In this document: one piece after another, positions 3,990-47,252 of the stretch
Numbering within the stretch: position 1 is the stretch's first letter
How the letters are laid out: each line of letters starts with the position of its first letter
Virus record (IMG/VR): IMGVR_UViG_3300025144_000001
Coordinates: 1-63,240 of that record
Source: a virus
Lineage: Duplodnaviria; Caudoviricetes
DNA: 63,240 bases
Direction: 5' to 3' (one strand)
Position numbers and translations under genes: made by a program
Notes under the pieces: model-generated
Databases searched by the model: none
The model's input: the letters and a program-made list of their open reading frames with translations, nothing else
Told to the model about the DNA's origin: nothing

Positions 3990-3993
3990 ATGT

Positions 3994-14312: not shown

Positions 14313-15204
14313 CGGTTTTCTTCAATCCTGCTTCCAAACTGAATTTCGGCTGCCAATTGAGGAATTGTTTAAGCTTAGTGTTGTCGGAAACCCATGTTTT
14401 CGGTTCGCGCCGTTCATCAAGCTTGTCGAATTGAAATATGTAAGTATCCGTTAGATTCATGATGATTTTCAGGACTTCCGTGACTGAATGCTGTTCACCG
14501 AAGCCGACATTGAAGATTTCCCCCGTGGTTGGCTTCTCAATCATGTTTGCGAGAACATCAACCACATCTTCGATGAAGATGAAGTCGCGGACTGCGTAGG
14601 GTTCGAAGAATGAAACCATCTCGTTTTTTAGTTGTGCGCGGATTAATGTCGGTATTAACCGTGTCGGAGCTTCATAGTACCCGTAGACTGAGAATAATCG
14701 TAGGATAGTGATTGGCAGTTTGTCGTTTAACGCTAATGTTCGACATAACGTGGTTGCAGTGGCTTTCGAGATGCCGTAAGTGTCAATTGGTTCAATCTCA
14801 TCGTTTTCCTTCATTGGTTTATCTTTCACACCGTACTCCGATGAGCTGCCCGTATATATGAAGTGGTTGAATCCAAGTTTTGCGCAGGCGTTTAGTAAGT
14901 TGTGTGTTCCCGTTATATTCGTGTCCATTATTGTGTCGAAGTCTTTTTGGGTACGTGGATATGCGCCGTGGGTTGCAAGATGAAGGATTACGTCGGGTTC
15001 GATTTCTTTAACTGCACTTGTGACGGCGGTTTCATCGCGGATATCAACTTCATAGTTGATTAGTGAGTTGTAAATGTCTTTGATTCGCCAAATCTTCGAC
15101 TGTGGCCTCGACATAGTATATAGGTCATATGGCATATCGATGAGTCGGCGAATAAGGTTGGCTGCTACGAAGCCAGTTGCACCCGTCACCAAAACCGTTT
15201 TCAA
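14257..15204 (-). CDS. NAD-dependent nucleotide-sugar epimerase/dehydratase/reductase (extended SDR)
   Basis: TGATGFVA, GSSSEYG, YGISK, RDFIFIEDV. Confidence 0.92.
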   Translation of the reverse strand: MKTVLVTGATGFVAANLIRRLIDMPYDLYTMSRPQSKIWRIKDIYNSLINYEVDIRDETAVTSAVKEIEPDVILHLATHGAYPRTQKDFDTIMDTNITGTHNLLNACAKLGFNHFIYTGSSSEYGVKDKPMKENDEIEPIDTYGISKATATTLCRTLALNDKLPITILRLFSVYGYYEAPTRLIPTLIRAQLKNEMVSFFEPYAVRDFIFIEDVVDVLANMIEKPTTGEIFNVGFGEQHSVTEVLKIIMNLTDTYIFQFDKLDERREPKTWVSDNTKLKQFLNWQPKFSLEAGLKKTVEWFKSNPQFMLPEGTSG

Positions 15205-15932
15205 CGGTTTCTCTCCAAAGGAGGAAGTTTACCCGTTTCAAGTAGAAAGTGCATTTTCTCGAGGGCTTGAGCGTAACCGCGAGTACCGGCAAAGTGAACC
15301 ACGTGAATTTCGTCAATGGAAAGGTTTTTGCAGGTTATTTCTTCGCCTACGACGGGGCGACCGTAGTTGAGTTCAGGGTGAAGTTCAATTGACCGCGCGT
15401 TTTCCTGCGAATAAAACATTTTATTGTAAATATATTGGTCGCTTCCCCAATGTTTCGGATCGTAACTATCCATTCCGAGGAATCCTGTGTTCCAGCACTT
15501 CATTGTATGGGGAAAATATTTGACTGCTGCGTTTAGAAGCGGTGGACCGTTTAGCCAGGGATTAAATTCCTTGTCTACGCAACCTGCAATGTTGAATAAG
15601 CGGAATTCGTTGAATCTGCCGAAGATTTCAGTGGGTCTTATGAAGCAAACATCGGGTTCAGTGTAAAGGATATTGCACGGCTGGCTTTCCCAAAGGCGAT
15701 GTATTTGATAGAATACGTCTTTCAATGCTATGTTCAGCGAAGTTACGGGAATTAACACATTTGCTTCCGTGAAAAGGATGTGTTCGTCTATGTCCTTTAG
15801 ATATTTGAAGGTGGATTGCGCGGATAAATCGTAAAGCTGCTTGCATATTTCGTATACACTTGCGCCTTCGGGAACATGGTAAAGTATCGAAACCCAAATA
15901 TTCCTAACTTTTCCCGCTGACAAATAATTCAC
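15201..15932 (-). CDS. Putative nucleotide-diphospho-sugar transferase (GT-A fold)
   Basis: ILYTEPDV (DxD-like), LNAAV, WGSDQYIYN, VVHFAG; sits in the sugar cassette. Confidence 0.6.
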   Translation of the reverse strand: MNYLSAGKVRNIWVSILYHVPEGASVYEICKQLYDLSAQSTFKYLKDIDEHILFTEANVLIPVTSLNIALKDVFYQIHRLWESQPCNILYTEPDVCFIRPTEIFGRFNEFRLFNIAGCVDKEFNPWLNGPPLLNAAVKYFPHTMKCWNTGFLGMDSYDPKHWGSDQYIYNKMFYSQENARSIELHPELNYGRPVVGEEITCKNLSIDEIHVVHFAGTRGYAQALEKMHFLLETGKLPPLERNR

Positions 15933-16529
15933 TTATATGCCATTCGAATTGCAAACTATGATGTAGCAGTTCCAAGGCTTTGCTGTGACGTTTTGTTCAA
16001 TGACTTTGAAGCCGTTTTCGAGGAGAAATGGAACAGCGTAACCGCCTTTCCCTTCAAAAGCCCCATTCACCCCCCATGTATCGTCGAACATTACGAAGCA
16101 TTTGTCGGCAACGAAATCAAGGAGTAACCGTGCAATTTCAAGATGTGACTTCTTGGAGTTCTCATTGTTCAACTCCAAACCATATTGCTTATACGTGTCT
16201 ATTTGCCCGATTACCGCTTTCGTATCTTTAATTTCATCGAAAATATAGTCGAAGCCGTCAAGGTAAGCGAAACATATTCTCTCATCTTTCGGAAAGATGT
16301 TTTTCAGGAAGTCTTCCGCTTTCATTTGAACGGCTATTGTGTTCGGTATCAATTTCGCGCGTTGATGAGCAACTATTTCGAAATCCACGCTGTAAAACTT
16401 CAAGTTATTTCTATGGCAAAAGTCAGCGAGAAAACAAGTGGAACCTCCGAAACGTTCGGAACCAACCTCTATGACGCTTCCTTTCAAACGGTTTTGATAT
16501 TTCTCAATTTCCCTAAATGGTGTGCCCAT
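15933..16529 (-). CDS. Class I SAM-dependent methyltransferase
   Basis: VIEVGSER.GGST, YSVD, FAYLDG, VMFDD. Confidence 0.75.
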   Translation of the reverse strand: MGTPFREIEKYQNRLKGSVIEVGSERFGGSTCFLADFCHRNNLKFYSVDFEIVAHQRAKLIPNTIAVQMKAEDFLKNIFPKDERICFAYLDGFDYIFDEIKDTKAVIGQIDTYKQYGLELNNENSKKSHLEIARLLLDFVADKCFVMFDDTWGVNGAFEGKGGYAVPFLLENGFKVIEQNVTAKPWNCYIIVCNSNGI

Positions 16530-17773
16530 TAATTTTCTCCGCCGACATAAATGACTTGCACACCCTCACGCCTTGGAATGTAACGCCATGGATCGATGAC
16601 GACACTACCTTGCGGAAACGGGAAATCAATCCATTCAGGATGCTTCGTGCCAATCAGGAAGACACTTGATTTAAAATTCGGTTTTTCCATGTCAACGTGA
16701 GGATCATACATAATGACGCTGTGGCCGCGTTCCTCGAGAATGTTTTTCAGTAGTATTGCGGGGCTTCCGACTATAATGTTTGTTTCAGGTTTGAAGGCTT
16801 TCCCCAAAATCACTTTGGGAAGCGGGTACTCATCCATTAAGTTAGCAAGCCATTCAGTTTGTTTCTCCCGCGCATTCATCACACTTTCAAACCAATCGTA
16901 ACTTAAACCAAGTTTACGGGCAAGCCATGACAACGCAATGTTGTCGCGGGGATGACAACCACCTCCATCACCTAGACCGCCGCTTAAATATTTCGGGGAT
17001 ATTACGCGGTCAGTTGCAAGCTTCAGCCCATCGGTTACAACGTCCACGTCGCAACCTGTTTTATGGCATATCTCCATCAATGTGTTTGCAAAAACGATTT
17101 TCATGCCGATAAACGTGTTATATGCAACTTTAATCAATTCCGCGTTTTCGACGGTTGTGCGGTAAAACGGCGCGTTGTTTATTGTGCGGTAAAACGCTTC
17201 CGCCTTTCTTGCGGCTTCCTCATCGTCTACGCCGAATAGGTTGAATTCAGGGTTTAGGAGGTCTCTGATGCAGGTTCCCATTGCGATGAAGAACGGGTTG
17301 TAGCAAAGCTTCACATGTTCATTTAGTAACGGTTTGATGTGTGTGCGGATCGTGGTGGGAAGCACGGTTGAAACAATTATTACTACGCGATCTACATGTT
17401 GCTCTGCAATTTCATCCGCTAAAGCTTCAATGCCTTTAATCAAGTAAGTGTAATCGAAGTCAACGCGCTCATCGGGTAAACGCGTTACACCCTCATATTT
17501 CTCGTGGTGAGGGGTTTGAATCGCAACGAAAATTAACTCGCATTCCCGAACAATATCTTTAAGCGATGTAAGGTGAATATGGCTTTTTTCGAGAAGTTCC
17601 TGCGCTCCTTCTTCTCGGTAAGGAATTTTGCGTTTCCGAACAATTTCAATTACGGTTGGGCTAACATCGTACCCTAGCACTTCGTAGCCTTTCGATTCAA
17701 TTGCTAGGGCGCAGGGTAACCCTAACTTACCTAATCCAACCCAACCGACTTTCACTTGGGAAGCCACATCCAC
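16529..17773 (-). CDS. UDP-glucose/GDP-mannose dehydrogenase family protein
   Basis: GLGKLG, AIQTP, STVLP, AELIK...N, GGGCHPRD, AFKPET. Confidence 0.93.
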   Translation of the reverse strand: MDVASQVKVGWVGLGKLGLPCALAIESKGYEVLGYDVSPTVIEIVRKRKIPYREEGAQELLEKSHIHLTSLKDIVRECELIFVAIQTPHHEKYEGVTRLPDERVDFDYTYLIKGIEALADEIAEQHVDRVVIIVSTVLPTTIRTHIKPLLNEHVKLCYNPFFIAMGTCIRDLLNPEFNLFGVDDEEAARKAEAFYRTINNAPFYRTTVENAELIKVAYNTFIGMKIVFANTLMEICHKTGCDVDVVTDGLKLATDRVISPKYLSGGLGDGGGCHPRDNIALSWLARKLGLSYDWFESVMNAREKQTEWLANLMDEYPLPKVILGKAFKPETNIIVGSPAILLKNILEERGHSVIMYDPHVDMEKPNFKSSVFLIGTKHPEWIDFPFPQGSVVIDPWRYIPRREGVQVIYVGGEN

Positions 17774-22749: not shown

Positions 22750-23771
22750 TTCTCATTCACCTCGCATTTGCCAGTTTCACATTCATCACCTTTAGGTTTT
22801 AGTCGGGCTTGAAGCCAACCGCAAAGTTTTTCAGCGTTTTTCTTTGGAAGACCTTTATGTTTCATTTGCCATTGAACGCAATCGTTAAATCCTTTCCATC
22901 TTCCGAATGGATCGTTGCCGACTTCAGGTTGCGGTTGATCCACACCGATTCCGCATAACGGTAGTGAACATCTGCCTTTCTCAACGATGGCTACATGGTC
23001 GAGTTTAAGGTCGGTTTCAACGAGATCATATTTATGCTCGTTCCAGTTGCCTTCCTTCTCCTCGAAAACATGGTAGTAGCCGATGCTGACATCCCTTAAT
23101 TCACCGCGTTTAACCGCGTCGATAAGCGATTGAGGTGCAACCTTCTTGTTAATCGTTAAACGCGCCTTAATCTTCGCATCCTTAAACTCCTCAACATACG
23201 CGGTTCCCATAATATCCTTAGTAGTCATCACCACTCCTTCAGGTGGATGCGCTAAGTCGAGTCGAAGAATGAGGGGCATTTCGGTTTGCAGTAGTGCGGC
23301 GCGTTCAAGCACTTTTGCGGGGCGGTATATTTTGCCTTCGTGGAATGGGAAAACTCCTTCACGCGCAATAACTGCGTCAACGGCCAAGTAGTCGGCTGTT
23401 TCAGTCATGTTTAAAGCGTCAGCATCAACGTTTGCGGTTTCGCTGTCGAAGTTTTTAAGCAAGCATTTCTCGCAGTGCGTCTTCGATGTTTCATCTGTCT
23501 TCTCCGATGTCACTTGAAACGATTCGCGGTTTTCAAACGGCACTTCGTCAACGATGCCACGCCAAACAAACTCGTAGTCACCAGCATCCATGTCTACGTT
23601 GACGAGGAAACGGTAGCCTTCAGCCGTCTTCTTCGGAACGTAGGAGTGAATTTCCTTACCGTCTTTCTCAACGGTCAACTTCAACTCCGACGGCTCATAC
23701 TGCTTATTCTCCTCGGTTTCAAACACTTTCACTACACGGGAGAAAATCTCGCCTTTCTTACATTCAATCAC
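22746..23771 (-). CDS. Prohead maturation protease (DUF2213-like) with extra N- and C-terminal domains
   Basis: AREGV, HP, GELRDVSIGY, DHVAIVEKGRC. Confidence 0.85.
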   Translation of the reverse strand: MIECKKGEIFSRVVKVFETEENKQYEPSELKLTVEKDGKEIHSYVPKKTAEGYRFLVNVDMDAGDYEFVWRGIVDEVPFENRESFQVTSEKTDETSKTHCEKCLLKNFDSETANVDADALNMTETADYLAVDAVIAREGVFPFHEGKIYRPAKVLERAALLQTEMPLILRLDLAHPPEGVVMTTKDIMGTAYVEEFKDAKIKARLTINKKVAPQSLIDAVKRGELRDVSIGYYHVFEEKEGNWNEHKYDLVETDLKLDHVAIVEKGRCSLPLCGIGVDQPQPEVGNDPFGRWKGFNDCVQWQMKHKGLPKKNAEKLCGWLQARLKPKGDECETGKCEVNEN

Positions 23772-25252
23772 TTTTCATCACGATTCTTTACTGTGAATTT
23801 CTTCTTTTCGGTTTTAACATCCAACTTAAAATCAAGTTCAATCGTTTCGTCAATCAACATGAATTTTTTATCTTGAACCGATTCAACATTAAATTCGACG
23901 GGTCTAATTTCAATCGGCAAGATCGCGGTTCGCGGTTCGCTTTCCTTAAACTCAATCGGTAAAACCGCTGTTTTCGCTTCAAGTATTGAGATTGGTAGAA
24001 CGCTTTGTTTTCGTGTGGGTGGAACGAATATGCGGCCAACGCCGCCCGTTGGTGGGGGTGTTGGTGGAGGTTGTGCTTCAGTGGTTAGGTATGCGTCGGT
24101 TGAGTGGCTTAATGTGTAGGTTGCTTTAAGTAAACTGTTCGTGGTATGGGATTTAGTTTGTGTCTTTAATAGTAACGCGTTTGTCGAATGAGTTTTTGTG
24201 GCAACTAACTTTAGGAATGAGTTGGTGGTATGCGCCTTCGAGAAAGTGGCTTTAAGTAACGCGTTTGTAGAATGGGTTTTGGTTTGAGTTTTCTTCAGTA
24301 ACGCGTTGGCTGTATGAGTTTTTACGCCTCTTAAGAGTAAATTCGTATTGGTTGTATGGGTTTTGGTGGCGGTTTTTAGGAGTAATGCGTTTACGGTGTG
24401 AGTTTTCGTTTGAGTCTTTAATAGAAGCGCATTCGTCGCGTGAGCTTTGGGTACTCTTGAAATTAAGTAGGCGTTCGTTGTATGTGTCTTGGTTGTTCTT
24501 TTTACCAGTAGTGCATTGGTTGTATGGGCTTTTGTTAGAGTTTTCTTCAGTAAAGCGTTTGTGGTGTGAGCTTTGGATGTGGTTTTCTTGAGAAGCGTGT
24601 TTGTTGTATGCGTTTTAGTGTATTGTGCTCCTGCTGCTTCGTTCAGTGTTTGCGGACAATAGAAGTAACTTTTGTTGTCGGTTGCAGCGGTGCCGTCAGC
24701 TGTGAAAGTTGTTGTGCCTTCATAATAATCGGTCGCCGTGTACTCAGTGGATTTCGCGTTGTTAATGAGCCACCATTCTTCGACGACAATGCGATCGTTC
24801 AGTTGGATGCTGAAGTTGCCAGAGGCACCCGTCGCAGTTATAACGCATTCCTTTTGGCTGGTCCCATGTTCGGTTCCGCATGAAGTTGCAACTATGATGG
24901 TTTTAACATTGCCGGAACCGTTGCGCCAAACATAAACAAATGTGTCGTGGTACAGGTTCATGCTGGTGCTGGATTCTTTGATGCCGATGCCGACTTGATA
25001 TCCCGCTTGTCCACCCGTCAATGTTTGCGCGGCAAGAGCGGGACCGACGAAGATTCGCGCAAGCGTGTACGCTGCTCCAGCACTATTATATGCACCTACC
25101 TGCGAAGTCTCCAATGTTCCCGCGGCAGTCGTCATGTCCTTCGCAGTGTTCTTATCCGATGGAACTGTTGGAAACCCGTCAGTACGTGTGCTTGCTTTAC
25201 CCGTTGGACCCGCTGACGCGTCGGAGCTGCGGAAGTAATATGTTGTTGCCAC
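23768..25252 (-). CDS. Virion fibre-like protein with 14-aa repeats
   Basis: N-terminal beta domain, 13 copies of TKxHTTNALLxKxx, then a Pro-rich linker. Confidence 0.7.
   Translation of the reverse strand: MATTYYFRSSDASAGPTGKASTRTDGFPTVPSDKNTAKDMTTAAGTLETSQVGAYNSAGAAYTLARIFVGPALAAQTLTGGQAGYQVGIGIKESSTSMNLYHDTFVYVWRNGSGNVKTIIVATSCGTEHGTSQKECVITATGASGNFSIQLNDRIVVEEWWLINNAKSTEYTATDYYEGTTTFTADGTAATDNKSYFYCPQTLNEAAGAQYTKTHTTNTLLKKTTSKAHTTNALLKKTLTKAHTTNALLVKRTTKTHTTNAYLISRVPKAHATNALLLKTQTKTHTVNALLLKTATKTHTTNTNLLLRGVKTHTANALLKKTQTKTHSTNALLKATFSKAHTTNSFLKLVATKTHSTNALLLKTQTKSHTTNSLLKATYTLSHSTDAYLTTEAQPPPTPPPTGGVGRIFVPPTRKQSVLPISILEAKTAVLPIEFKESEPRTAILPIEIRPVEFNVESVQDKKFMLIDETIELDFKLDVKTEKKKFTVKNRDEK
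24074..24619 (-). repeat. 13 tandem 42-bp (14-aa) degenerate coding repeats
   Basis: TKTHTTNTLLKKTT / SKAHTTNALLKKTL / ... / TLSHSTDAYLTTEA. Confidence 0.9.
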
Positions 25253-35014: not shown

Positions 35015-36325
35015 TCACCTCCGAAGATTCACAGCATTCCAAATGTCAACACATCCAAAACCGCTATCGTTATTCGGTGCGTCACCAAGTATACGTGCAG
35101 TTTGCTTAATCCTACTCGTATAAATTGATGCTAACTCACCATTCGGGTAAGCTTCCATAAGCAAAGCGATTGCGCCAGCGGTGTGCGGTTGCGCGGGACT
35201 TGTGCCACGGCAAACGATATAACCGAAGCTTGTATCTGCAACCAAAATTCGCTCCGCATCCTCAACCAGCATATACCGGGGATAACGAAGCCGCCCACGG
35301 TCGAACAAGTATTCGTCGCCGAATTTGCGGTATTGTTGTCCGCCACCGGGTGACATAACGAAGTATGGCGGTGGTCCCCGTGAACTGAAGTTTGCGATTG
35401 CGTCGGGGTATGGATTGCGAATGGCTAATGCGCCTGTTGCGATTGCGCCTAGATTCGCCATGTCGGCGGGACAGCCAATCGACGGATAACGTTGCCCACC
35501 CCAACCGGGCTTAAACACACCTTGCTTCCAACCGCTATTACCCATACTGACGCTGAAAACCATACGTGGATTAACTGCAAAAGCTTTCTCGAGAACATGA
35601 TGAAGGTCTTCACTACACCGCGAACTACCCCAACTCGCAAGCATAATGTCGGGTTTATGCGCGATTGCGCGGTCAATCCCCCTGTAAATCACGTTTAACG
35701 TGGTGCTTCCTGAAGCGGGGAAGACTTTGACGCTCACTACTTTTGCGTCGGGTGCGACGGTGAGGAAAATGCTTTGCATTCCCGGCCCGTGAAAATGACG
35801 TGCGATAGGAGAGTTTTCGGGAGAATTATACGGATACTTGAATGCAATTTCTTCCGCCAAATACTTGCCTTTTAGCAACGGGTGTTTCGGGTTGCTTCCC
35901 GTATCCAAAACCGCGCCGACAATGTTTTTTCCAGTTAAACCAACTTGCCATGCTTTGTCCGCACCGATATACTTGGCGGTTTCACCCATCGTTACGGTAA
36001 TGCCTGTGCTTGGCGGAGGCTCAAGCTTAACCGTAATATTCTCGAAAACACCTTCTATTTCCTTAAAGTCTTTAAGAAGTGCTAGGAGATCAGCGCGAAT
36101 GTGAACGACGAAATGCGCCATTTCAAGCGATTCAAGTTTGTCGAAGCTAATGAACATGTAGTCGCCGAATAGACGCCCCCAGCGAGTGTCTAATACACTA
36201 TTCACTAGGTCAGCTACGGCTTCCGCCTCATCAAAATATTCAGGTGCAACACGAATAATGAATTCAGCTTTACGTCGATCTAAAATTGCCCGTTCAACCT
36301 GTGGCTCAAAAAACACGTCGTACAC
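35015..36325 (-). CDS. Subtilisin-like (S8) serine protease with N-terminal propeptide
   Basis: AVLDTG (Asp), HG (His), GNSG, FSSRGP, GTSPAQPHTAG (Ser); no signal peptide. Confidence 0.9.
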   Translation of the reverse strand: MYDVFFEPQVERAILDRRKAEFIIRVAPEYFDEAEAVADLVNSVLDTRWGRLFGDYMFISFDKLESLEMAHFVVHIRADLLALLKDFKEIEGVFENITVKLEPPPSTGITVTMGETAKYIGADKAWQVGLTGKNIVGAVLDTGSNPKHPLLKGKYLAEEIAFKYPYNSPENSPIARHFHGPGMQSIFLTVAPDAKVVSVKVFPASGSTTLNVIYRGIDRAIAHKPDIMLASWGSSRCSEDLHHVLEKAFAVNPRMVFSVSMGNSGWKQGVFKPGWGGQRYPSIGCPADMANLGAIATGALAIRNPYPDAIANFSSRGPPPYFVMSPGGGQQYRKFGDEYLFDRGRLRYPRYMLVEDAERILVADTSFGYIVCRGTSPAQPHTAGAIALLMEAYPNGELASIYTSRIKQTARILGDAPNNDSGFGCVDIWNAVNLRR

Positions 36326-36340
36326 CTTTTAAGCGCGAAA

Positions 36341-36510
36341 ACATGGGGAGAAATTAGCCGATACCCGCCGCAGTAATCAAGTCTCGAAACTCAACGCTCT
36401 CCCAAACGTTAAGAGGAACAAGACGCTACAGGGAACCCCATGTGGAGTTAAGGCGTGGGTGGCACTCCGTTTACTACGGCTACCACTCCAAAACGCCGTT
36501 ATACTCCATA
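36341..36510 (-). ncRNA. Predicted structured RNA (long hairpin plus multibranch domain); ncRNA or 5' leader
   Basis: Several complementary stems whose G-U pairs favour the minus strand; one GNRA tetraloop. Confidence 0.55.
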
Positions 36511-36537
36511 CTTAATTATGTCGAGAACTTCGATTGA

Positions 36538-36873
36538 TTAAGCTTGAATGTGACCGCATTTCTCGCATATTTTCTCGTTGGTAGCGGGGTCGAAAGCAAT
36601 CTTATCATGTTTGCAATGGGAACATATTTCAATGATTATCTTCCTTGTGGGGTAGCGGGTGAAGTAGGATTGGTAGGTGAGTAATAGTCGCCGCATTCGT
36701 CGGGCATATTTGTTCCAACTGTTGCGGCGGGCTTGTTCGCGGCAGTCGGGGCAATATTTAACATGTGTGGCTTTCGGCGGAACGGTTAAACGCCTGTTGC
36801 AAATTTGCTCCCGACCATTCCGAACTACGACACCACGGCAAAACACTACGCGTACACCCTGCTTCCGTTTCAC
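36538..36873 (-). CDS. Zinc-finger protein with C-terminal TFIIB-type zinc ribbon
   Basis: YCPDC and CSHCKHDKIAFDPATNEKICEKCG (CxxC...D...E..CxxCG). Confidence 0.65.
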   Translation of the reverse strand: MKRKQGVRVVFCRGVVVRNGREQICNRRLTVPPKATHVKYCPDCREQARRNSWNKYARRMRRLLLTYQSYFTRYPTRKIIIEICSHCKHDKIAFDPATNEKICEKCGHIQA

Positions 36874-37499
36874 GATGCTTCATCCATCCATTGTTTTAAC
36901 GCGTCTAACGTGACAGTTGACGACCAAACATCGTGACCGACATTGAGAATTACATGTAATGGTCCAGCATTTGGGTTAGGTTCGAGTAATTGAAAGATTT
37001 TGCAATGAGTTTCATGTGCGGGTTTATCAAGTACCCCATGGATGAGGAAGACATTGTATTTCATGAATTTTTTGCGTTTGATTGGTGGTAGGTGTGGTGT
37101 GGATAGTAGCGCGATGTTTGTGATTGATGGTTTTTGCGCGTTAAGTTGCGAAAGCGCGAGAATTGCGCCCGCTGAATGTCCGACCAAAAACGTTTTCGGT
37201 TTTCCGAAAATCCGCCTCACCCACGCGCAAACATTGTCAACCCAACGGTCGCCCCACCGAAAAATTTGACCGTAGCGAAGCACAAGCACGCGGAAACCTT
37301 CGTCAACGAAGAAGTCGACTGCGCGAAGCTCATCATCGTTGAAGTGGCTGAAACCTTTACTATTAACCTTATCCACGCTATAGCGAATCTTCAAGCCACC
37401 CATAAACAACACAATAGTTCCTGCACACGCATCCTTCTCCAACGCAAGCACTTCAACGGGACCATAAATCCCATTGCTTGTGGGTGTCCAAACTTGCAT
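36870..37499 (-). CDS. Alpha/beta hydrolase
   Basis: GHSAG nucleophile elbow, HGVLD, GH. Confidence 0.8.
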   Translation of the reverse strand: MQVWTPTSNGIYGPVEVLALEKDACAGTIVLFMGGLKIRYSVDKVNSKGFSHFNDDELRAVDFFVDEGFRVLVLRYGQIFRWGDRWVDNVCAWVRRIFGKPKTFLVGHSAGAILALSQLNAQKPSITNIALLSTPHLPPIKRKKFMKYNVFLIHGVLDKPAHETHCKIFQLLEPNPNAGPLHVILNVGHDVWSSTVTLDALKQWMDEAS

Positions 37500-37675
37500 G
37501 GCTTAAAAATCTCCAGTAAAAAACTTGATTAGTAATTTGATATAGAAGCAGAAACCAATTATGCCACCGCATATTGTAAAGAGGGGGAATGTGTTGAGGA
37601 GACAATCAAAAGCGTAACTACTGAGACCGAATACAAATGGGGTTAATACAACGCACCACAAAAATAAGAGGGGAT

Positions 37676-38290
37676 TCACGGCTCGCATTCCTCCACAATT
37701 TGTTTCCATTTGGCGACTTTTTCTTCCTCGGTTTTCATTTCGCTCCATCGAATGTTGTATTTCTTCATCATGTGTTGGAATAGTCGACGCAGAAAGTGGC
37801 TGTCCGCGAGTTGGTAACCTAATAATCGCGCGTATTCGCTGTCGCCTTTCAAACGCAAATGTCGATCCTCCTTCTCCATGATCTCGTAACGTCCGCTGTC
37901 CTTCAACGCCAACACAGTTAATACGCAAGCCAAACTTTCACATGGCACATCGGGCCACCCTTCACCACACGCAAAACCCTGCCAAACATGTGCAATCTCA
38001 TGGCCCAACACGGCGAAATACCATTCCGCATACATGTAACTAAGCTTCGGCTCATAGTAACCGCGTGTCGCAAGGCAATCCACATTCAACTGTATGCCAT
38101 TGTGGTTTGCATTGCCACCCACCGTTAAGTCGGGAAGCAATTTGATTTGTATGGTTTCGGGGTATTCCCAACCCAGTCGTCGGCGGTAGCAAGCGTGAAT
38201 CATCGGCGCATAGCGGATGTACGGGATTAACATATCATGGAGTTCCACAGGGTAAAACCATTCAAACATCTTATACTTCAACTCAGCCAA
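37676..38290 (-). CDS. Zincin-like metallopeptidase domain protein
   Basis: GHEIAH (HExxH) with downstream ESLA. Confidence 0.65.
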   Translation of the reverse strand: MAELKYKMFEWFYPVELHDMLIPYIRYAPMIHACYRRRLGWEYPETIQIKLLPDLTVGGNANHNGIQLNVDCLATRGYYEPKLSYMYAEWYFAVLGHEIAHVWQGFACGEGWPDVPCESLACVLTVLALKDSGRYEIMEKEDRHLRLKGDSEYARLLGYQLADSHFLRRLFQHMMKKYNIRWSEMKTEEEKVAKWKQIVEECEP

Positions 38291-38292
38291 AG

Positions 38293-38547
38293 TTAATTTC
38301 CCCTCTTCATCTCGAAGCTAATTTTCTCGCCGTTAATTTCAACGGTTAATTCACCAGTATCCCAAATCTCGATGATTACAGTTGAAAAAGGCGAAAATAC
38401 TCGTAAACCCGTTTTCACACCGTCAACATAGTCGTATATTTGACTTGGACCGCTTCTCCAAGTACGATATCCTTCTTTAGTGACTGTGGAAGGTTTAGTT
38501 TCGGTTAGGAATTTTGCAATGAATCGTTTTCGCTTCAATTCAGTCAT
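38293..38547 (-). CDS. Hypothetical protein
   Basis: AGGTGA SD; in operon. Confidence 0.55.
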   Translation of the reverse strand: MTELKRKRFIAKFLTETKPSTVTKEGYRTWRSGPSQIYDYVDGVKTGLRVFSPFSTVIIEIWDTGELTVEINGEKISFEMKRGN

Positions 38548-38557
38548 TTTTTCACCT

Positions 38558-39100
38558 TTAAAAATATTCGACGTAGAATATTGTTACGAATGCGTCGTAG
38601 TGGCCGGCGTAGTCAGTTGCGTTGACCGCCGCTATCTTCGTGAAGATTGGTGTGTCGATGTCGATGTTGATTGCGTTGCCGGCGGGGAAGAATTGCGGCT
38701 TGTATAGGTCGCTTACACCGACGCATTGATGGTAGGAATCCCTTTGCACGTAAAATAGATAGTCGCGCTTCAAACTTTCAGCGAAACAGTATTGCGGTTC
38801 ATCATAGCGGATTAGTTGTTTTTTATAGATTTTGTCGGCATGCCATCCATCCGTGTAATCGAAGTATTCGTGGCCAGTATGCTTACCGTATTTCTTAATG
38901 TTCGGGTTTAAACTGACGGCGAGATATATTTCCGCGTTGCTTTCGATGTAGCCGTCGCAAAGCGTGTAGCCGTCGAAGCCGATTATCCCGATTTTCCTGT
39001 CGGTTTTCCAAACATCCTTAATGAAAACCTCACTCGTATGAGGCTTCAAGTAGCCGAAGTGGAAAACTGGGTATCGCTTAACATTATCATTCTGCGTCAT
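38558..39100 (-). CDS. Hypothetical protein
   Basis: Coupled ORF, 180 aa. Confidence 0.6.
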   Translation of the reverse strand: MTQNDNVKRYPVFHFGYLKPHTSEVFIKDVWKTDRKIGIIGFDGYTLCDGYIESNAEIYLAVSLNPNIKKYGKHTGHEYFDYTDGWHADKIYKKQLIRYDEPQYCFAESLKRDYLFYVQRDSYHQCVGVSDLYKPQFFPAGNAINIDIDTPIFTKIAAVNATDYAGHYDAFVTIFYVEYF

Positions 39101-39309
39101 TCTTCAATCCACTCGTACATTCGTCCTGTCCGTAAATCACATGACCCCTTTGCAAAGGAGATCAAGTTGCTCCATGTATGAAATTCGTCAATATCCTTCC
39201 ATTTGATCCACCAATAGGGAACGCGGATAAGGTAGAAGGGCAGTAGAAGCCAATAGTGTAGTGTTTCCTTCCAACCGAATTTCTTAACCCATCTGCCTTT
39301 AGTAATCAT
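39097..39309 (-). CDS. Hypothetical Trp-rich protein
   Basis: Coupled ORF. Confidence 0.5.
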   Translation of the reverse strand: MITKGRWVKKFGWKETLHYWLLLPFYLIRVPYWWIKWKDIDEFHTWSNLISFAKGSCDLRTGRMYEWIEE

Positions 39310-39320: not shown

Positions 39321-42068
39321 CTACTTTAATTCTTTAAGTCGCTTCACAATTTCATCGTGACTAACATCGGGAAACACGTGTTTCGAATAATCTTCCTCGT
39401 CGACTGCACCTACGATTTCGGTTCCAAGCTCCTTACTCATCTTCACGTAATCCTTGAAGTCCTTCCACAAGTTTTGATAGCCGATTTGGGGAATGATAAT
39501 TTTTTGAAATTTCTCTTCGCGTGCTGCGTCGAGTTTTCCCGCGCCTCGTTTGGGTTGAATGCCGCCGACAAGACCAGCTTTGCCGTTCATGGATACTTTA
39601 CCAGTCATGCAGATGTTGGGTGATGCGGGTGTTTTTGTTAAGGCACTTATCATCGCCATTAAAATTGCCATTCCTGCACTTGGCCCCGAAGCTTTTTGCG
39701 TGTCGATGTCCACGCCTTCGCTTGGGGAAAGCATGTGTACGTAAATGTCGAAGTCCATGATGTTCAGGCAGTGCTTGCGCAAATATGTGCGTCCAATCCG
39801 CGCTGACTCCTTAATGCTTTCATTAACGGTTCCGTAAACCTCGATTACGCCTTCATTCTTCTTTATTGCTGGGAAGATTTGGCATTCAATCGGCAGCACC
39901 ATTCCCGTTTGCCCTTCGCTATCAGTGGCTAAACCAAATGTTTTCCCGACTTCCGGCTGACCGCTACGATATATGGCCTGCATCTGTCGAAGCTCCCGCA
40001 TCTCATCTGTCTCCGCCTTCTTCTCAAATGCCTTCTCCAAATGAAACAGGCGAATCTTCCACTTCTCCGGCGTAATGTTCGCGTAAACCCCATGCAAATC
40101 CTTTTCATTATTGTTCACCGTTTTGTTTAACGCAAGTATCTGTTGAATCCGCGTAAACTCGTCCTTCCACGCTAACCGAATGTCCTTGATCTTCTCCGGA
40201 AACATTCCACTAACAGCGTCCACAAGCTTCATCGTAGCCTGAATCTCCTTCGCACGCAAACTATTCGCATCAAGCACAACATCCGCTATGATTCGCGGCG
40301 AAAACGTCTTTTGAAGGAAAATCTTCATCGCTGAATCCGTGGTAACTTCATCATGTAAATGCTCCTTCACATAGCCCAAGTGAACCGCTAAAACCTCACG
40401 TTTCTCCTCAACCGATTTCGGATATGGAAACTCGAATTGGCGACTGAGCCTATCTTTCACGCCGGGATCGATGATGTCGAGGCGGTTAGTTGCACCGATA
40501 ACGACAACATTTCCCAATGGGTTAAAACCGTCGAGTTCCGCGAGAAGCGCAGCAGTTACAGTTTGAGATACTCCTGCATCGCCGAAGCGGGATCCACGTA
40601 TAGGTGCAAGTGCATCAATTTCGTCGAGGAAAAGTATGCTCGGCGCATGTTTCTTAGCGTTTGCGAACACGTCCCGCACACCCTTCTCGCTTTCACCAAC
40701 CAAACCCGTCATAAGTGACGGTCCTTTAACAAGGAAGAAGTTCACTTGATTCTCATTCGCAATCGCTTTCGCGAGAAGTGTTTTTCCGGTTCCTGGTGGT
40801 CCGTGGAACAAAAAGCCCTTGGGCGGTCTGTATCCGACTTTGCGGGCTTGATCCGCGTCCATTGCAAGCATGATTTCCTTGATTACATTGGGTTTAACGT
40901 CGTGCAGTCCACCGATGTCTTTGTAGCGTTCCCACGACTTCACCATTTGATGCGCTTCTTTCGCGGAAGCAGTCATTTCGCGTTCCGTGTACGCGATTAC
41001 TTTAGGGATTATTTTCGCGAAGTCATTGTACTCGTATTTCGGCGGTTCAAGTTTTGCGGCTTCACCTGACTTGAACATGGATTCGTGGATTGGTTTCTCC
41101 TTCTCTTCGACGAGATATTGGAATGTTTTTATAATGTTGTCGGGTACAACTTGTGTGTGTCCACGTGTGCGAAACGCTTCCTCCATCTTCTGCAAAATCT
41201 TCTCATCTTCAAATCCTTCGATATGATACTTTGCGCATTGACGGTTTATCAGTTCAAGCAACATTGGCCGCGTGATGCCTAAATCCAAGTCGAGGATTGC
41301 ACTTCGCCGTCGAATTGTCTCGAGAAGCGACTCGTACTTATCCGTTGAAAAAATAATGATGCTACGAAAATCTTTCGCCTGAAGCAAATCAATCTTCTGC
41401 AAAATTGTGCCTTGAACCTTCTGATCTTCACCGCTTTCATCGCTCGCCTGCTCCCAACGCCCGCCTTTCTTCGCGAAATTCTGCGCTTCATCAATCAAGC
41501 AAACCGTCGGTGTCGCAATAACCTCGTTAAGCATTTGCGCCACCTTGCGTGAAGATTCGCCGTACCACATGGTGTATATTTCGCTTGCCATGATGACTTT
41601 CGGGTTGACGATGTAGCCGTCTTTCAATCCACGTTCAAAGGCTTCCCGCTGAATTGCCTTCACCAAAAACGTTTTACCTGTACCACTTGCGCCTTTAACA
41701 CAAAACACTTTCGGCGGCGGATTCTTCAACTGTTCCCGTAACTTCGGGTCGCGCAAAACCCAATAATGCACACTCGTAAGCAAAACGCTTTTCTCAGTAT
41801 CGCGACCGACAACTTCGTTAAGCGTAACATGGGGAAAATCAGGTTTAACGCGATATTGCATACTCCACTTCTGCACTTTCTTCATACGCTTCTTCTCCGA
41901 AAGAAGACTGAATCGATGAAACCTGTATTCTTTCGAAGTTAGGTGAATCAACGGGCGATACAATACGCGGAACCATTTATGGCGATACCAATAGAATTGG
42001 GCTAAAGGCGCTTCCACCACATCCATGTAGGCTTTATCCGCGTCTTTTGGTTGCCAAGGTTTCCTCAT
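39321..42068 (-). CDS. Tandem AAA+ (Cdc48/p97-like) ATPase fused to a Lon-type (S16) protease domain
   Basis: D1 GASGTGKT/CLIDE; D2 DIGGL, GPPGTGKT, LFLDEID, GATNRLD; C-terminal GPSAG...TG...VGGI...K..AA Ser-Lys protease. Confidence 0.9.
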   Translation of the reverse strand: MRKPWQPKDADKAYMDVVEAPLAQFYWYRHKWFRVLYRPLIHLTSKEYRFHRFSLLSEKKRMKKVQKWSMQYRVKPDFPHVTLNEVVGRDTEKSVLLTSVHYWVLRDPKLREQLKNPPPKVFCVKGASGTGKTFLVKAIQREAFERGLKDGYIVNPKVIMASEIYTMWYGESSRKVAQMLNEVIATPTVCLIDEAQNFAKKGGRWEQASDESGEDQKVQGTILQKIDLLQAKDFRSIIIFSTDKYESLLETIRRRSAILDLDLGITRPMLLELINRQCAKYHIEGFEDEKILQKMEEAFRTRGHTQVVPDNIIKTFQYLVEEKEKPIHESMFKSGEAAKLEPPKYEYNDFAKIIPKVIAYTEREMTASAKEAHQMVKSWERYKDIGGLHDVKPNVIKEIMLAMDADQARKVGYRPPKGFLFHGPPGTGKTLLAKAIANENQVNFFLVKGPSLMTGLVGESEKGVRDVFANAKKHAPSILFLDEIDALAPIRGSRFGDAGVSQTVTAALLAELDGFNPLGNVVVIGATNRLDIIDPGVKDRLSRQFEFPYPKSVEEKREVLAVHLGYVKEHLHDEVTTDSAMKIFLQKTFSPRIIADVVLDANSLRAKEIQATMKLVDAVSGMFPEKIKDIRLAWKDEFTRIQQILALNKTVNNNEKDLHGVYANITPEKWKIRLFHLEKAFEKKAETDEMRELRQMQAIYRSGQPEVGKTFGLATDSEGQTGMVLPIECQIFPAIKKNEGVIEVYGTVNESIKESARIGRTYLRKHCLNIMDFDIYVHMLSPSEGVDIDTQKASGPSAGMAILMAMISALTKTPASPNICMTGKVSMNGKAGLVGGIQPKRGAGKLDAAREEKFQKIIIPQIGYQNLWKDFKDYVKMSKELGTEIVGAVDEEDYSKHVFPDVSHDEIVKRLKELK

Positions 42069-42658
42069 TTAGACAACCACCTATTCAGAAGATTGATTTT
42101 TTGTTCCGTTGAAATTTGCTGTATCGTAAAAGCATGTAGTTTTCGGTGGCAGTCCTTGCAAAGAAGAATTAAGTTGTTCAAATTATTGTTATTTTTATCC
42201 ATGTCAATGTGATGGATATCTAAGCGTGAAGAACATCGACATTTTCTACAGGTCTTGTCTCGGTCAGATGCTCTTACAGCGTTTTCACCATGTCGATAAC
42301 GAAGAAAACTTTCATGTATCTGTTTTGGGTGTGTCAACCGATAGCGTGTAGCGTTTAACTTGACTTTTTCGGGATTTCTCCTCATCCAATCTATTGTATA
42401 TCGGATATTCTTTTCTCTATTTTTATAGTAGGTTTTTCGACGTAACGCCTTGATCTCATTGGGATTTGCTTTTGCGTACTTTTTCTGGCGTTCATTTATT
42501 TCTTTGCGATGGGTTTGCTTATATTGTCGCCGCTTGTCTTTATTCGCCAAGTAGTATCGGTGCATATACTCTTTGTAGTAATGAGGATGGTTCCTGACCC
42601 ATTGTTTCATATAGTCACGATGTCGCTTTCTTTTTTCTTCTAGCGAAGCCAAGTCCAT
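42065..42658 (-). CDS. HNH homing endonuclease
   Basis: Basic N-terminus, then RDKTCRKC...IHHID...NN...NLILLCKDCH; start reassigned to ATG 42658. Confidence 0.85.
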   Translation of the reverse strand: MDLASLEEKRKRHRDYMKQWVRNHPHYYKEYMHRYYLANKDKRRQYKQTHRKEINERQKKYAKANPNEIKALRRKTYYKNREKNIRYTIDWMRRNPEKVKLNATRYRLTHPKQIHESFLRYRHGENAVRASDRDKTCRKCRCSSRLDIHHIDMDKNNNNLNNLILLCKDCHRKLHAFTIQQISTEQKINLLNRWLSK

Positions 42659-43728
42659 ATATCCACCAATCCGTAGATGATTGAGCCGATGAGTGCGGCG
42701 ACGATGAAGATGATTAGCAGTAGTATGGCCCAGCCTGCGTATTGTCCCATGCGCATTTGTCCGCGTTGCCGTCGGTCGCGTACTTCGATGATTGCGAATG
42801 CAATGAAGTAGCCGGCGAGTGATCCCCAAAAGATTTTGCTGCAGATGAACCATACGAGTGGGTCGAGGATGTATGCGATTGCGGGGTGGCTTTCCCAAAT
42901 GTTTGTGGCTGCGATTTTCACATTGCCCTCAAGTGTGCCGGTTGAGGTTGCGAATGCATATTGCATTTCAAGCAGTATGCCAGTCGCTTGGTCCCACCAC
43001 CAATCGATTTTAGCGCCGATGTCGACGTATTGGATGTGGATTGTGTTGCGGATTGCGCCGAAGTAAATGCGGTACTGCGTGTCGGTCACGTACATGCTTG
43101 AACCGCGGTTTAACGCTACGCCCTTCCTTAAGCTTATTGCGGTGAAGATTTGGTTGTAGACTGGGAAGCCGATGTCACTTTGGTAGACGGTGACGTATCC
43201 GTATTCAACATTTTGACTGAGGAGTGGAAAGATCGTTTGGTAAGTTACGTTGTAAACGGTTGTTGTGCGGTTGACAAGTTTAACGGTTGGCGGACCGTAG
43301 CCGTAGGGCGAGTAGCTGGTAACATTATAGGATTCCGTCACATTCTCAACCATTCGGTATGAAGTCCACTGCTGCCCGAAACCGCTGAAAGTGTTTTCAA
43401 GTGCGGTCGTAATGTTCGGCGAGTTGTCGGTTATTGTGATGTTCATGGTTTCGGTTACAAGTTTCGGCGCTATTACGGAGCCGTTTTCGAGGAAATATGT
43501 TGCGGTGAAGTAAACCTTCGTCTTCGCCGTCACGTTTAAAACATCAAGTTGAACACCCACAATTTCCGGCAACCAATCCGGCATATTAACTGCATACGCT
43601 ACGCCGTCGCCAACCTTCACACCTGCAAAATAGTTGGCGCCGAAACAAAGCGGAAAAACTGAGCAACTGAAAGCGAGGATGCTAAGGAAGAGCGAAAAAA
43701 CAATAATTTGCACTTGCTTACCTTTCAT
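42640..43728 (-). CDS. Secreted/membrane-anchored surface protein
   Basis: Signal peptide, GVKVGD..Y and WDQATGILLE motifs, many N-x-S/T sequons, C-terminal TM helices. Confidence 0.75.
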   Translation of the reverse strand: MKGKQVQIIVFSLFLSILAFSCSVFPLCFGANYFAGVKVGDGVAYAVNMPDWLPEIVGVQLDVLNVTAKTKVYFTATYFLENGSVIAPKLVTETMNITITDNSPNITTALENTFSGFGQQWTSYRMVENVTESYNVTSYSPYGYGPPTVKLVNRTTTVYNVTYQTIFPLLSQNVEYGYVTVYQSDIGFPVYNQIFTAISLRKGVALNRGSSMYVTDTQYRIYFGAIRNTIHIQYVDIGAKIDWWWDQATGILLEMQYAFATSTGTLEGNVKIAATNIWESHPAIAYILDPLVWFICSKIFWGSLAGYFIAFAIIEVRDRRQRGQMRMGQYAGWAILLLIIFIVAALIGSIIYGLVDIWTWLR

Positions 43729-45728: not shown

Positions 45729-47252
45729 CTACTCAGCCCCCGTCAACCTATATTTCGGGTGAACCAAATCTTCCGCGAACAATTGACCCTTCAAATACAT
45801 TTTCTGAAAAACCTTCTGAAACTCCTCCGTCGAGTAACCTGCTGCAACCGCTAATTCTTGAAGTTCTTCTCGACTTCGCGGCCCATTCTCCAATGCATCC
45901 TCTATAACTTCGTTAAGTTTGGGTTTGGTGGAAATAGTTGTAGTTGGTGTGGGGGGTTGTTTTCCATTCATTGTCGAAACTTTTTCCAGTATTTCGTTAG
46001 ACGGAGAGATTAGTGGAGTTTGTATTGACCCCCCACCTTGACTACTACTAATTTCACCGGGGATTATGAGGTAGCGGCGTCGGTCAGTTGGATCGGGTTC
46101 CAATAGTATTAAACCAGCGGCCTCTAGTGCGGGTTCAATTTGGTCGTGCCACTTCCATTTCGGCAGTGGCTTGTGGTACACTTCGCGGTAGGTCTTTTGC
46201 ACGGTCTTGACTTCAACGCCGGTTTCGTATTTTTGCAATAACGGTTGAATTACCCGTAGGTACACGTTATAGTTTCCTGGGCTGATTCCGAGTTGGTTTG
46301 GTTTGCTGATTTCTTGGTAAAGTTGCCAGGCTTGCTCTCCGTCTTCAGTGGTTGCGGTGATGGTGGGGATTTTTCCCTCGGTTTTTCGCCGTGGGCTTTT
46401 CAAGAGGGCGATTGCGTTTGTTAGGCTTATTAGACGTTTGAAGTCTCGCATTGATCTTGCACTTAGAGTGTTGTTGTCGGTGTATTTTAACGCCAAATCT
46501 CCTGCTGTTGGAAACGATACCACGCGTCCGCACTGGTTGTCCCGTATGTCTCGGATGTATTTCATCAAGTATTGGCGGTATTGGCTTCCGCTGATTGTTC
46601 CATCATATTTGTACGGATTTATTGCTCGGTGGCTTATGAGGGCGATTGACTTGAATATTTTTTCCTCCTCTTCACCGGGGGTTAGGATGAAGCTTCTGGT
46701 GGCTTGCTCCTCGCTTACGTTAAGTTTAGCTGTGCAGAAGATTACTGCGGGCCAGCCGCGTAGGATTACTGTTTTTGTGCGGAGTCTTCCTTTCCCCATT
46801 TTGTCGGTTATCTTATACTTTAGTTCGAAGTCGTCGTGGCTTAACAGCGGTTTTAGCCTCTCCAATAGTTGGTCGTTGGGTTGATCGAGGAAGATGAGAA
46901 TTTTACGCGTTAACTCCACTATGACTTCATGTGCTTCCTTGTCATATTTGCCGTATTCATGGAAGAATGCGGTCGCCGATGCACCGGCAAGTTTCAGTAA
47001 GTCTTCTTTCGGGAAAAGGTGCGCTATTTGGAGGACATCATGTGTTTTCCCGATGCTTGTGTCGCCTTTCATTAGAATGTTCAGTTGGTCCTCGGCGCTA
47101 TATGCGCTTAACATTGCTAGGAATGTGATGAGTTTTGTTGCGCGGTCATGCTTGATAGTTTGGGAAAGCACTTTTTCCGCAAGCTCCAACGGGTCCAACT
47201 GCTCCGCTGCAGCTAGATCGCCGTCGTTTTCCCCTAACTCAAATTCACTCAT
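45729..47252 (-). CDS. P-loop ATPase, probable replicative helicase, with C-terminal winged helix
   Basis: GDTSIGKT Walker A, LIFLDQ Walker B, TRS, RDFKR; low-complexity linker then wHTH-like tail. Confidence 0.7.
   Translation of the reverse strand: MSEFELGENDGDLAAAEQLDPLELAEKVLSQTIKHDRATKLITFLAMLSAYSAEDQLNILMKGDTSIGKTHDVLQIAHLFPKEDLLKLAGASATAFFHEYGKYDKEAHEVIVELTRKILIFLDQPNDQLLERLKPLLSHDDFELKYKITDKMGKGRLRTKTVILRGWPAVIFCTAKLNVSEEQATRSFILTPGEEEEKIFKSIALISHRAINPYKYDGTISGSQYRQYLMKYIRDIRDNQCGRVVSFPTAGDLALKYTDNNTLSARSMRDFKRLISLTNAIALLKSPRRKTEGKIPTITATTEDGEQAWQLYQEISKPNQLGISPGNYNVYLRVIQPLLQKYETGVEVKTVQKTYREVYHKPLPKWKWHDQIEPALEAAGLILLEPDPTDRRRYLIIPGEISSSQGGGSIQTPLISPSNEILEKVSTMNGKQPPTPTTTISTKPKLNEVIEDALENGPRSREELQELAVAAGYSTEEFQKVFQKMYLKGQLFAEDLVHPKYRLTGAE

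Follow-up and report, generated by a model that had tools for sequence, protein, structure and literature searches.

Domain architecture of the viral protein

The DNA stretch analyzed here is the whole of IMG/VR virus record IMGVR_UViG_3300025144_000001 (hereafter, the window; 63,240 bases, linear, 83% complete by CheckV), and the gene under study, at positions 39321..42068 on the minus strand, encodes a predicted protease in which two Cdc48-like AAA modules are followed by a Lon protease domain. The gene lies mid-contig between the portal (PF06381) and large terminase (PF03237) genes (28.5-31.1 kb) and the gene for an N6/N4 DNA methylase (48.1-49.2 kb), on the same strand as these; together with a DUF2213 gene, portal and terminase occupy 22.7-31.1 kb. 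Genes for this methylase, an HNH endonuclease, and a nucleoside deoxyribosyltransferase flank it on either side, nearly all genes of the window are on one strand, and the GC content is even along the window. The hallmark genes, the flanking genes, the single coding strand, and the even GC content place the gene inside a tailed-virus genome and not in a host flank, so the assignment to a virus made in an earlier note on this stretch holds.

The open reading frame (ORF) starts with ATG, contains no internal stop, and encodes 915 aa followed by a stop codon. From the N-terminus, the protein comprises a helical region, AAA module D1, AAA module D2, a helical linker, and the Lon protease domain (all coordinates in this section are on the minus strand). 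The N-terminal region (residues 1-110; 41739..42068) is helical, aromatic, and basic, belongs to no Pfam family, and occupies the place of the Cdc48 N domain; W27 and R34 within it are nearly invariant across the family described below. D1 (residues 115-375; 40944..41726) contains the Walker A motif GASGTGKT (residues 126-133; 41670-41693), the pore loop MWYGES (41553-41570), the Walker B motif CLIDEA (residues 190-195; 41484-41501), FSTDKY with T242 (41334-41351), and IRRRS with R254/R255 (41301-41315). D2 (residues 385-620; 40209..40916) belongs to the classical clade and contains Walker A GPPGTGKT (residues 423-430; 40779-40802), the pore loop GLVGESE, in which Leu-Val-Gly is non-aromatic (40686-40706), Walker B FLDEID (residues 480-485; 40614-40631), and the second region of homology GATNR...DRLSRQ (40437-40496; GATNR, residues 525-529). 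The linker connects the D2 lid to the protease domain (residues 621-700; 39969..40208), and its last helix aligns with the helix preceding the protease domain in Thermococcus LonB (3k1j). The Lon_C (S16) domain (residues 703-876; 39441..39962) includes the catalytic Ser797 (codon 39678-39680) in GPSAG (residues 795-799), Thr822 within CMTGK (39597-39611), and the catalytic Lys845 (codon 39534-39536) in GKLDAA.

Profile searches and structural modeling agree with this layout. Two stretches match the Pfam family AAA (PF00004; E = 4.6e-56), and residues 703-876 match Lon_C (PF05362; E = 1.5e-20; 74.1 bits, with a cut-off of 21.1). The NCBIfam CDC48 model TIGR01243 aligns residues 71-567 with profile positions 165-638, that is, D1 and D2 without the N domain. 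The PAN, FtsH, and LonB models each cover part of the protein, with E = 1.7e-50 for FtsH on D2. The closest solved ATPases by sequence are VAT (5vc7, 5g4g; E ~1e-88, two stretches), followed by Cdc48/p97; for the protease domain (residues 677-868), the best sequence match in the PDB is Thermococcus LonB 3k1j (E = 9.5e-17), with Meiothermus LonA also near. An AlphaFold2 model built from a 54-row alignment (mean predicted local distance difference test score [pLDDT] 82.9, predicted template modeling score 0.55) consists of a helical N-terminal region (helices 12-74 and 90-113; pLDDT of the block 49-94), two AAA folds, a helical linker, and a Lon fold, and a Foldseek search of the PDB with this model ranked p97, Cdc48, Rix7, and NVL at the top. 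Hydropathy analysis revealed no hydrophobic segment over threshold and no predicted transmembrane segment. Thus, the two AAA modules and the motifs quoted in the earlier note are all present at the residues listed above, and the Cdc48/PAN-like character it ascribed to D2 extends to D1, judging by TIGR01243 and the VAT/Cdc48/p97 structures. The Lon-type domain with a GPSAG serine was correctly recognized as well. An aligned downstream Lys also exists, but the catalytic residue is K845 in GKLDAA, not K840.

Conservation of the catalytic residues

Residue conservation was counted over 103 aligned rows of the family. In D1, the Walker A Lys132 is invariant (103/103), Asp193 is present in 100 rows, and Glu194, Arg254, and Arg255 in 95 rows each. 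The D2 residues Lys429, Asp482, Glu483, sensor-1 Asn528, and Arg540 are each found in 103/103 rows, as are Ser797, Thr822, and Lys845 of the Lon domain; Pro796 precedes the serine in 102 rows. In HMMER alignments, Ser797 falls on the GPSAG serine of Meiothermus LonA (5e7s, 4ypm), and Lys845 falls on its KLLAA catalytic lysine, after a 5-residue insertion. The dyad is aligned and invariant, contrary to the possibility, entertained in the earlier note, that it might not align. The single-chain unfoldase-protease proposed there appears to be the natural reading of the architecture, motifs, and dyad. The D1 pore loop is aromatic (Met-Trp-Tyr-Gly); that of D2 varies within the family, being Leu-Val-Gly in the viral copy, Trp-Val-Gly in some relatives from clade A, and x-Tyr-Gly in clade B (see below for the clades).

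A widespread archaeal family

A full-length search yielded 84 clusters (P0003-P0086) besides that of the query, of which 82 list both PF00004 and PF05362. The homologs are mostly ~900-910 aa long and collinear with the query, with 37-47% identity over 92-100% of its length, and rank above plain Cdc48 proteins, which cover about half of it. Many are labeled Bathyarchaeia or Bathyarchaeota and come from contigs of up to 1.47 Mb; the databases carry these proteins as "AAA family ATPase." By full-length collinear homology and the invariant residues, the viral protein belongs to this family, which we denote AAA-AAA-Lon_C.

Archaeal genomes were searched with the C-terminal 346 residues of the viral protein. 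In the class of G001, a Thermoproteota metagenome-assembled genome (MAG), a single match was present in each of 22 of 26 genomes, and the matching frames were ~900-957 aa long, except for one truncated by the end of its contig. Matches were detected in 53 of the 401 genomes sampled from the G001 phylum and in 28 of 201 genomes of the Bathyarchaeia-labeled class of G396. Two members of the latter class, G045 and G101, encode proteins corresponding to P0029 (last 850 residues) and P0030 (exactly), which carry the NCBI label Bathyarchaeia. Of the 18 loci obtained by scanning metagenomes for motifs, 17 encode relatives at 39-46% identity, and a contig scan with generic AAA patterns gave at least one full-length locus (L060). 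AAA-AAA-Lon_C is a cellular family widespread among archaea and did not originate as a viral design. It is apparently undescribed in print: no AAA-AAA-Lon_C or tandem-AAA Lon was found in the article texts covered, as distinct from the supplementary tables of PMC10541130 and PMC2605481, and the 2008 architecture table in the part of PMC2605481 consulted does not list this arrangement.

Several members stand out by length or label. Seven metagenome loci labeled Nitrososphaerales, on contigs of up to 195 kb, encode a form of 1120-1163 aa with an extra C-terminal peptidase-like BSP domain (L173:3888-7250 on the minus strand, and L162, L164, L165, L174, L175, and L176). This domain (PF04450, 8.3e-15) has an invariant HEIDH motif, and the long form would place two different protease types on one double-AAA chain. 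The context of these loci is plainly cellular, with genes for a GH38 mannosidase, a 2-hydroxyacid dehydrogenase, and Lrp/AsnC regulators. P0080 (1261 aa, clade B) contains intein and LAGLIDADG domains (PF14890, PF14528), and P0065 (1241 aa) is likewise over-long. P0006 (clade A, 89-kb contig) is labeled Candidatus Nealsonbacteria, a member of the candidate phyla radiation, and could represent either a mis-binned archaeal or viral contig or a bacterial occurrence.

Distribution relative to canonical Lon

In the G001 class, the LonB model TIGR00764 matched no gene over its cut-off in any of the 26 genomes, and in all 22 carriers the AAA-AAA-Lon gene was the only TIGR00764 match. This lack of canonical LonB suggests that LonB was displaced. 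In the G396 class, a Lon match with an E-value of 1e-30 or better was present in 115 of 201 genomes; another Lon was found in 1 of 12 strong carriers (a fragment, in G506), compared with 102 of 173 non-carriers (Fisher p = 6.5e-4). The 16 weaker carriers encode a more divergent subfamily, in frames of 928-1004 aa, and 12 of them have another Lon; when all 28 carriers are pooled, the contrast with non-carriers is not significant (p = 0.22). The cellular family looks like the housekeeping Lon of its lineage, being single-copy and, in carriers, without a second Lon-domain gene; what it replaced is probably LonB.

Phylogeny and rarity among viruses

Phylogenetic trees, rooted with Cdc48, were built from 108 rows under LG+G4, with family rows shorter than 780 aa and partial loci left out, and from 35 rows under LG+C20. 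Both trees recovered the same two groups, each with 100% support in the Shimodaira-Hasegawa-like approximate likelihood ratio test. Clade B includes all genome-derived copies, on short branches. Clade A is long-branched and comprises the query, P0003-P0007, P0021, P0065, L169, L177, and a nested Nitrososphaerales group. Within it, the query is the sister of P0003 (support 90-91), and its nearest relatives sit on 5-kb contigs. Given this long-branched placement in clade A, the viral gene is not a recent capture and is not nested among the Bathyarchaeia-type copies. We rejected a recent capture from a Bathyarchaeia-type host because the query falls outside clade B in both trees and shares at most 47% identity with any match. 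The earlier note had allowed that the protein might be a widespread cellular archaeal one simply captured here; widespread and cellular it is, but the identity ceiling and the position outside the Bathyarchaeia-type clade leave simple capture without demonstration.

Second viral examples were sought in several ways. A scan of IMG/VR with the family alignment and generic AAA patterns gave no full-length protein among the at least 58 loci listed, a related-locus search with the single viral protein found none, and a clade-A-specific motif scan of IMG/VR returned 0 matches. Among GenBank phage records, 9 of 50,697 had a weak match, confined to the Lon_C part. PHROG families match parts of the protein separately (phrog_15585, for instance, at residues 704-867), and none spans the whole of it; the best matches in BFVD are the giant-virus LonA-type proteins L7RFX4 and K7YGL9. 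The architecture, which the earlier note did not recognize from viruses, thus has no second viral example in these searches, but the design is that of a cellular family and not novel to viruses.

By terminase, the virus has no close relative in IMG/VR. The nearest terminases, at 41-43% identity, belong to proviruses in G396, G094, and G366, and these three genomes gave no match to the protease query, for which reason we read the protease as an accessory gene. Among the 18 metagenome loci, only 3 proteins of the window found matches; the neighbor genes of L169 and L177 had no PHROG matches, and those of L169 include sugar-nucleotide genes and AAA genes. The viral gene represents a rare, accessory occurrence of the cellular family.

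Membrane-protein genes upstream of the protease gene

In all 26 non-viral loci examined, a membrane-protein gene is located directly 5' of the family gene. These comprise 17/17 clade B loci, in which the upstream protein belongs to family F1 (238-270 aa, 12 loci) or family F9 (~270-298 aa, 5 loci); 7/7 Nitrososphaerales loci, with an upstream protein of 423-441 aa; and L169 and L177, with small three-segment proteins. Hydropathy was run on 13 of the 26 proteins; all 13 contain either a hydrophobic segment at the N-terminus or several such segments, and in most of them the C-terminus forms a hairpin whose loop is short and basic. The clade A subgroup of L169 (3332-4826, minus strand) and L177 (24-1092, plus strand) has an upstream arrangement different from that of clade B, with a separate single-AAA protein (PF00004, ~1e-19) encoded ahead of the gene, together with the three-segment protein. 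A membrane-protein gene beside the family gene suggests that the proteases work at the membrane.

In the window, a 362-aa predicted membrane protein is encoded upstream of the protease (42640..43728, minus strand), with the HNH gene between them. It has hydrophobic segments at residues 8-26 (N-terminal) and 333-351 (C-terminal) and eight NxS/T sequons, and its topology is the same as that of the cellular upstream proteins. By position and topology, it is a candidate partner of the protease. The only relative of this protein is a 93% identical variant; in the ESM Atlas, sub-threshold leads (feature score 0.87; TM-score 0.39-0.42 by query and 0.59-0.62 by row) point to hypothetical proteins of 217-254 aa from Bathyarchaeota, similar in size to F1.

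Genomic neighborhood and strain variation

The HNH endonuclease gene (42065..42658, minus strand; PF01844, E = 4e-5; start at 42658 inferred) overlaps both of its neighbors, with a 4-base overlap at the protease start. It could be a homing-type insertion that split a former gene pair; contigs of runs X2 and X3 cover it little or not at all and none bridges it, so nothing was concluded.

Just downstream of the protease gene is a hydrolase-rich stretch (35015-38290, minus strand). It encodes an S8 subtilase (35015-36325; PF00082, 2.5e-24; phrog_3677), a protein with a weak match to alpha/beta-hydrolases (36870-37499), and a 204-aa protein with a HEIAH motif (37676-38290) that has only sub-threshold M1 and BSP matches. 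A link between this HExxH protein and the Nitrososphaerales BSP domain is unsupported; the HExxH motif alone aligns.

Sugar-nucleotide genes occupy positions 13521-17773 on the minus strand and include a UDP-glucose/GDP-mannose dehydrogenase gene at 16529-17773; the ORF at 14257-15204 matches, at 26% identity, a stretch of L169 encoding an NAD-dependent epimerase. The 362-aa membrane protein has many N-glycosylation sequons, which makes these genes interesting. The region 1482-8415 (minus strand) encodes an 835-aa protein with Laminin_G_3 and fn3 domains, probably a fiber or adhesin. Large ORFs of 468, 984, 494, and 507 aa, without a Pfam or PHROG family, are located within 1482-8415, 23768-25252, and 45729-47252, all on the minus strand.

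Contigs with the stretch or its variants were detected in four sediment metagenome runs from four studies; the X1 run contained 0.96 of the sampled words and may be the same sample as the virus record. No RNA dataset is among the runs listed with the stretch. Of the 23 strain differences listed inside the protease gene (likeness of at least 85%; 40 of 481 rows), 19 are at third codon positions. The gene is under codon-level constraint, with selection maintaining the viral copy. An X3 contig joins 39099 to 39321 and an X2 contig joins 38282 to 38558; because these contigs join across both stretches, there are strains that lack the 70-aa ORF (39097-39309) or the 84-aa ORF (38293-38547) beside the protease gene.

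Possible functions of the viral protease

In light of the architecture, the intact motifs, the distribution of the family, the clade placement, and the codon-level constraint, the explanation that we favor, with reasonable though far from full confidence, is that the viral member of this undescribed Cdc48-Lon family functions as a hexameric protease dependent on ATP, encoded by a viral accessory gene and possibly acting with a membrane partner; the hexamer, the activity, and the membrane coupling are predictions. Two stacked classical-clade AAA modules resembling D1 and D2 of Cdc48/VAT would drive a Lon-type Ser-Lys protease domain. Homology with VAT/p97 and Lon suggests an assembly of six chains, in which a D1 ring would be stacked on a D2 ring and the latter on a Lon chamber. 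The pore loops (Trp168-Tyr169-Gly170 in D1 and Leu456-Val457-Gly458 in D2) would grip the substrate, and ATP-driven unfolding would be followed by cleavage at Ser797/Lys845. The virus keeps this single accessory copy in its non-structural region, downstream of a membrane-protein gene of its own and with the HNH gene in between, and would presumably run its own ATP-dependent proteolysis during infection.

Several observations weigh against this explanation or parts of it. The spacing between Ser797 and Lys845 is 47 residues, compared with exactly 42 in the Lon subfamilies described in the parts of PMC9569914 consulted; the difference is due to the 5-residue insertion ahead of Lys845. The non-aromatic D2 pore loop of the viral copy may weaken the grip on substrates. 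With regard to the membrane partner, we infer the coupling from gene position and topology alone, and the viral pair is interrupted by the HNH gene. Furthermore, the upstream proteins show no significant similarity to one another, either between F1 and F9 (hhalign probability 0.3%), between F1 and the viral 362-aa protein (hhalign E = 0.07), or between the latter and the Nitrososphaerales 441-aa protein (BLASTP). For the role of the cellular family, the complementary distribution with canonical Lon may go back to only one or two ancestral events, as states and labels are shared among related genomes, and the genomes are MAGs the completeness of which is not established. Finally, the proviruses with the nearest terminases share little else with the window, which leaves the link to a host loose.

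Two rival accounts of what such a protease does are, in our estimate, unlikely. In one, raised in the earlier note for defense and regulatory proteins, the enzyme serves host takeover or counter-defense by destroying particular host defense, regulatory, or surface proteins, perhaps with the upstream membrane protein as an adaptor or tether. This fits the location of the gene in the non-structural part of the genome, among HNH, N6/N4 methylase, and nucleoside deoxyribosyltransferase genes and with the subtilase, alpha/beta-hydrolase, and HExxH protein 1-6 kb downstream, as well as the codon-level constraint and the divergence from all cellular copies (identity of at most 47%), as expected of a specialized paralog. 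However, nothing specific supports this role, the protein matches no known anti-defense family, its PADLOC matches being either generic for AAA (IetA, on D2 only) or weak (BrxL, 2.5e-6), and nothing separates this account from general proteostasis, with no target, adaptor, or degron identified. The other account, to which we assign much the same low probability, is precisely such proteostasis, whereby the enzyme supplements or replaces host quality control, or recycles amino acids during host shutdown, without specific targets. The cellular family behaves as the sole housekeeping Lon of its carriers, the viral copy retains all catalytic residues, and giant viruses, too, encode Lon-type proteases (L7RFX4, K7YGL9). 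Nevertheless, no cellular copy closely resembles the viral one. Moreover, the proviruses with related terminases reside in genomes that gave no match, and the wider lineage can therefore dispense with the gene.

More speculative, and to us quite improbable in its entirety, is a portable two-gene membrane machine, in which a glycosylated membrane protein would tether or feed the Cdc48-Lon chimera, and the chimera would pull proteins out of the host membrane and degrade them within one chain, resembling the extraction step of endoplasmic reticulum-associated degradation fused to proteolysis. Such a machine could remove host receptors, S-layer anchors, or membrane-bound defense sensors, and its cellular relatives would make up a fifth subfamily of Lon, one that took the place of LonB in archaea of the Bathyarchaeia type.

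A role in virion assembly or maturation, or as a chaperone for viral structural or membrane proteins, would accord with the need of tailed viruses for maturation proteases and with the glycoprotein-like membrane protein encoded just upstream. We consider it a slim prospect, given that the gene is 8-10 kb away from the portal/terminase/DUF2213 block, where DUF2213 already marks the usual head-maturation position, and that no tailed virus is known to us to mature with the help of a Lon-AAA machine. Virus-borne defense or superinfection exclusion, for example, analogous to IetAS (AAA ATPase and S8 protease), is very improbable: the PADLOC IetA models match D2 (E = 1.3e-38) and an S8 subtilase is encoded at 35015-36325, but the IetA/IteA model NF042959 scores 114.8 bits, below its cut-off of 510, the CDC48 and PAN models score higher, and the subtilase is five genes away. 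Because a cellular homolog matches IetA equally well, this signal is that of a generic classical AAA module. Equally improbable is an unfoldase or remodeler whose protease domain is dead or vestigial, or a passenger gene in decay, as the unusual Ser-Lys spacing and the non-aromatic D2 pore loop might suggest, in view of the invariance of S797, T822, K845, and all D2 ATPase residues (103/103), the frame open over 915 codons, and strain differences mostly at third codon positions.

If the favored explanation of a functional ATP-dependent protease is correct, this is the only tailed-virus contig found to encode a complete ATP-dependent Lon-type protease of the double-AAA design, and, because the gene is under constraint across sediment samples, a candidate for virus-driven remodeling of the archaeal proteome. 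In a large group of sediment archaea, uncultured but ecologically abundant, the family seems to take the place of LonB; this raises the question of how membrane targeting is achieved once the LonB anchor is gone.

Comparison with known systems

According to the parts of PMC9569914 consulted, the described Lon subfamilies A, B, C, and BA have one HCLR-clade AAA+ module before the protease domain, and LonB has a membrane anchor inside this module and an Asp before the catalytic Ser. The viral protein qualifies as a Lon protease (MEROPS S16) by its Lon_C domain, which scores over threshold, and the aligned Ser-Lys dyad, but with two PF00004 modules and a dyad spacing of 47, it fits none of these subfamilies. 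With LonB (3k1j; Archaeoglobus 1z0w), it shares the C-terminal S16 domain, the Ser-Lys dyad, and the combination of ATPase and protease in one chain. LonB differs in its single HCLR AAA+ module with the inserted anchor, the Asp before Ser, and the spacing of 42, whereas in the viral protein the AAA modules are two in number and classical, no transmembrane segment is predicted, and Pro796 precedes Ser; its score with the LonB model TIGR00764 is 80.6 bits (cut-off 516.6). The protease domain resembles that of LonA (Meiothermus taiwanensis 4ypm/5e7s, Escherichia coli Lon) in the GPSAG-type motif, the Pro before Ser, the aligned Lys, and the Lon_C fold. The differences from LonA are the clade of the ATPase, the number of modules, and the five residues inserted before Lys; no LON N-terminal domain is present among the best 25 of the 48 Pfam families matched, and the LonA model TIGR00763 gives 78.6 bits (cut-off 608).

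The virus-encoded Lon-type proteins considered (giant-virus LonA-type proteins, phrog_15585, and ATPases of crenarchaeal viruses) have a Lon domain or a Lon-like ATPase, and none of them, as far as the sources consulted describe them, combines tandem classical AAA modules with Lon_C. The predicted Lon-type ATPases of crenarchaeal viruses are encoded, by ORF name, in frames of 210-443 codons in the part of PMC4124505 consulted.

The ATPase part is most similar to VAT/Cdc48/p97, as indicated by the tandem classical D1-D2 arrangement, the best matches among solved structures, and the aromatic pore loop of D1. Unlike these proteins, the viral one has no double-psi-barrel N domain (no PF02359 or PF02933, which true Cdc48 matches carry), and it scores 222.8 bits with the Cdc48 model TIGR01243 (cut-off 802.65). 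Archaeal Cdc48 passes substrates to a separate 20S proteasome. In the viral protein, the C-terminus is a protease domain and not a proteasome-docking tail, and hence proteolysis would occur in cis and not via the 20S proteasome. FtsH has a single AAA module, an M41 zinc metalloprotease domain, and N-terminal transmembrane helices of its own, but it is the other protease known to carry a classical-clade AAA motor in the same chain, and a functional analogy at the membrane is possible. The viral protein would work as a self-compartmentalized protease of the Lon or FtsH type, equipped with a double motor like that of Cdc48/VAT. The direct joining of a Cdc48-type double ring to a Lon chamber, as predicted for this family, is a natural experiment in motor-protease modularity.

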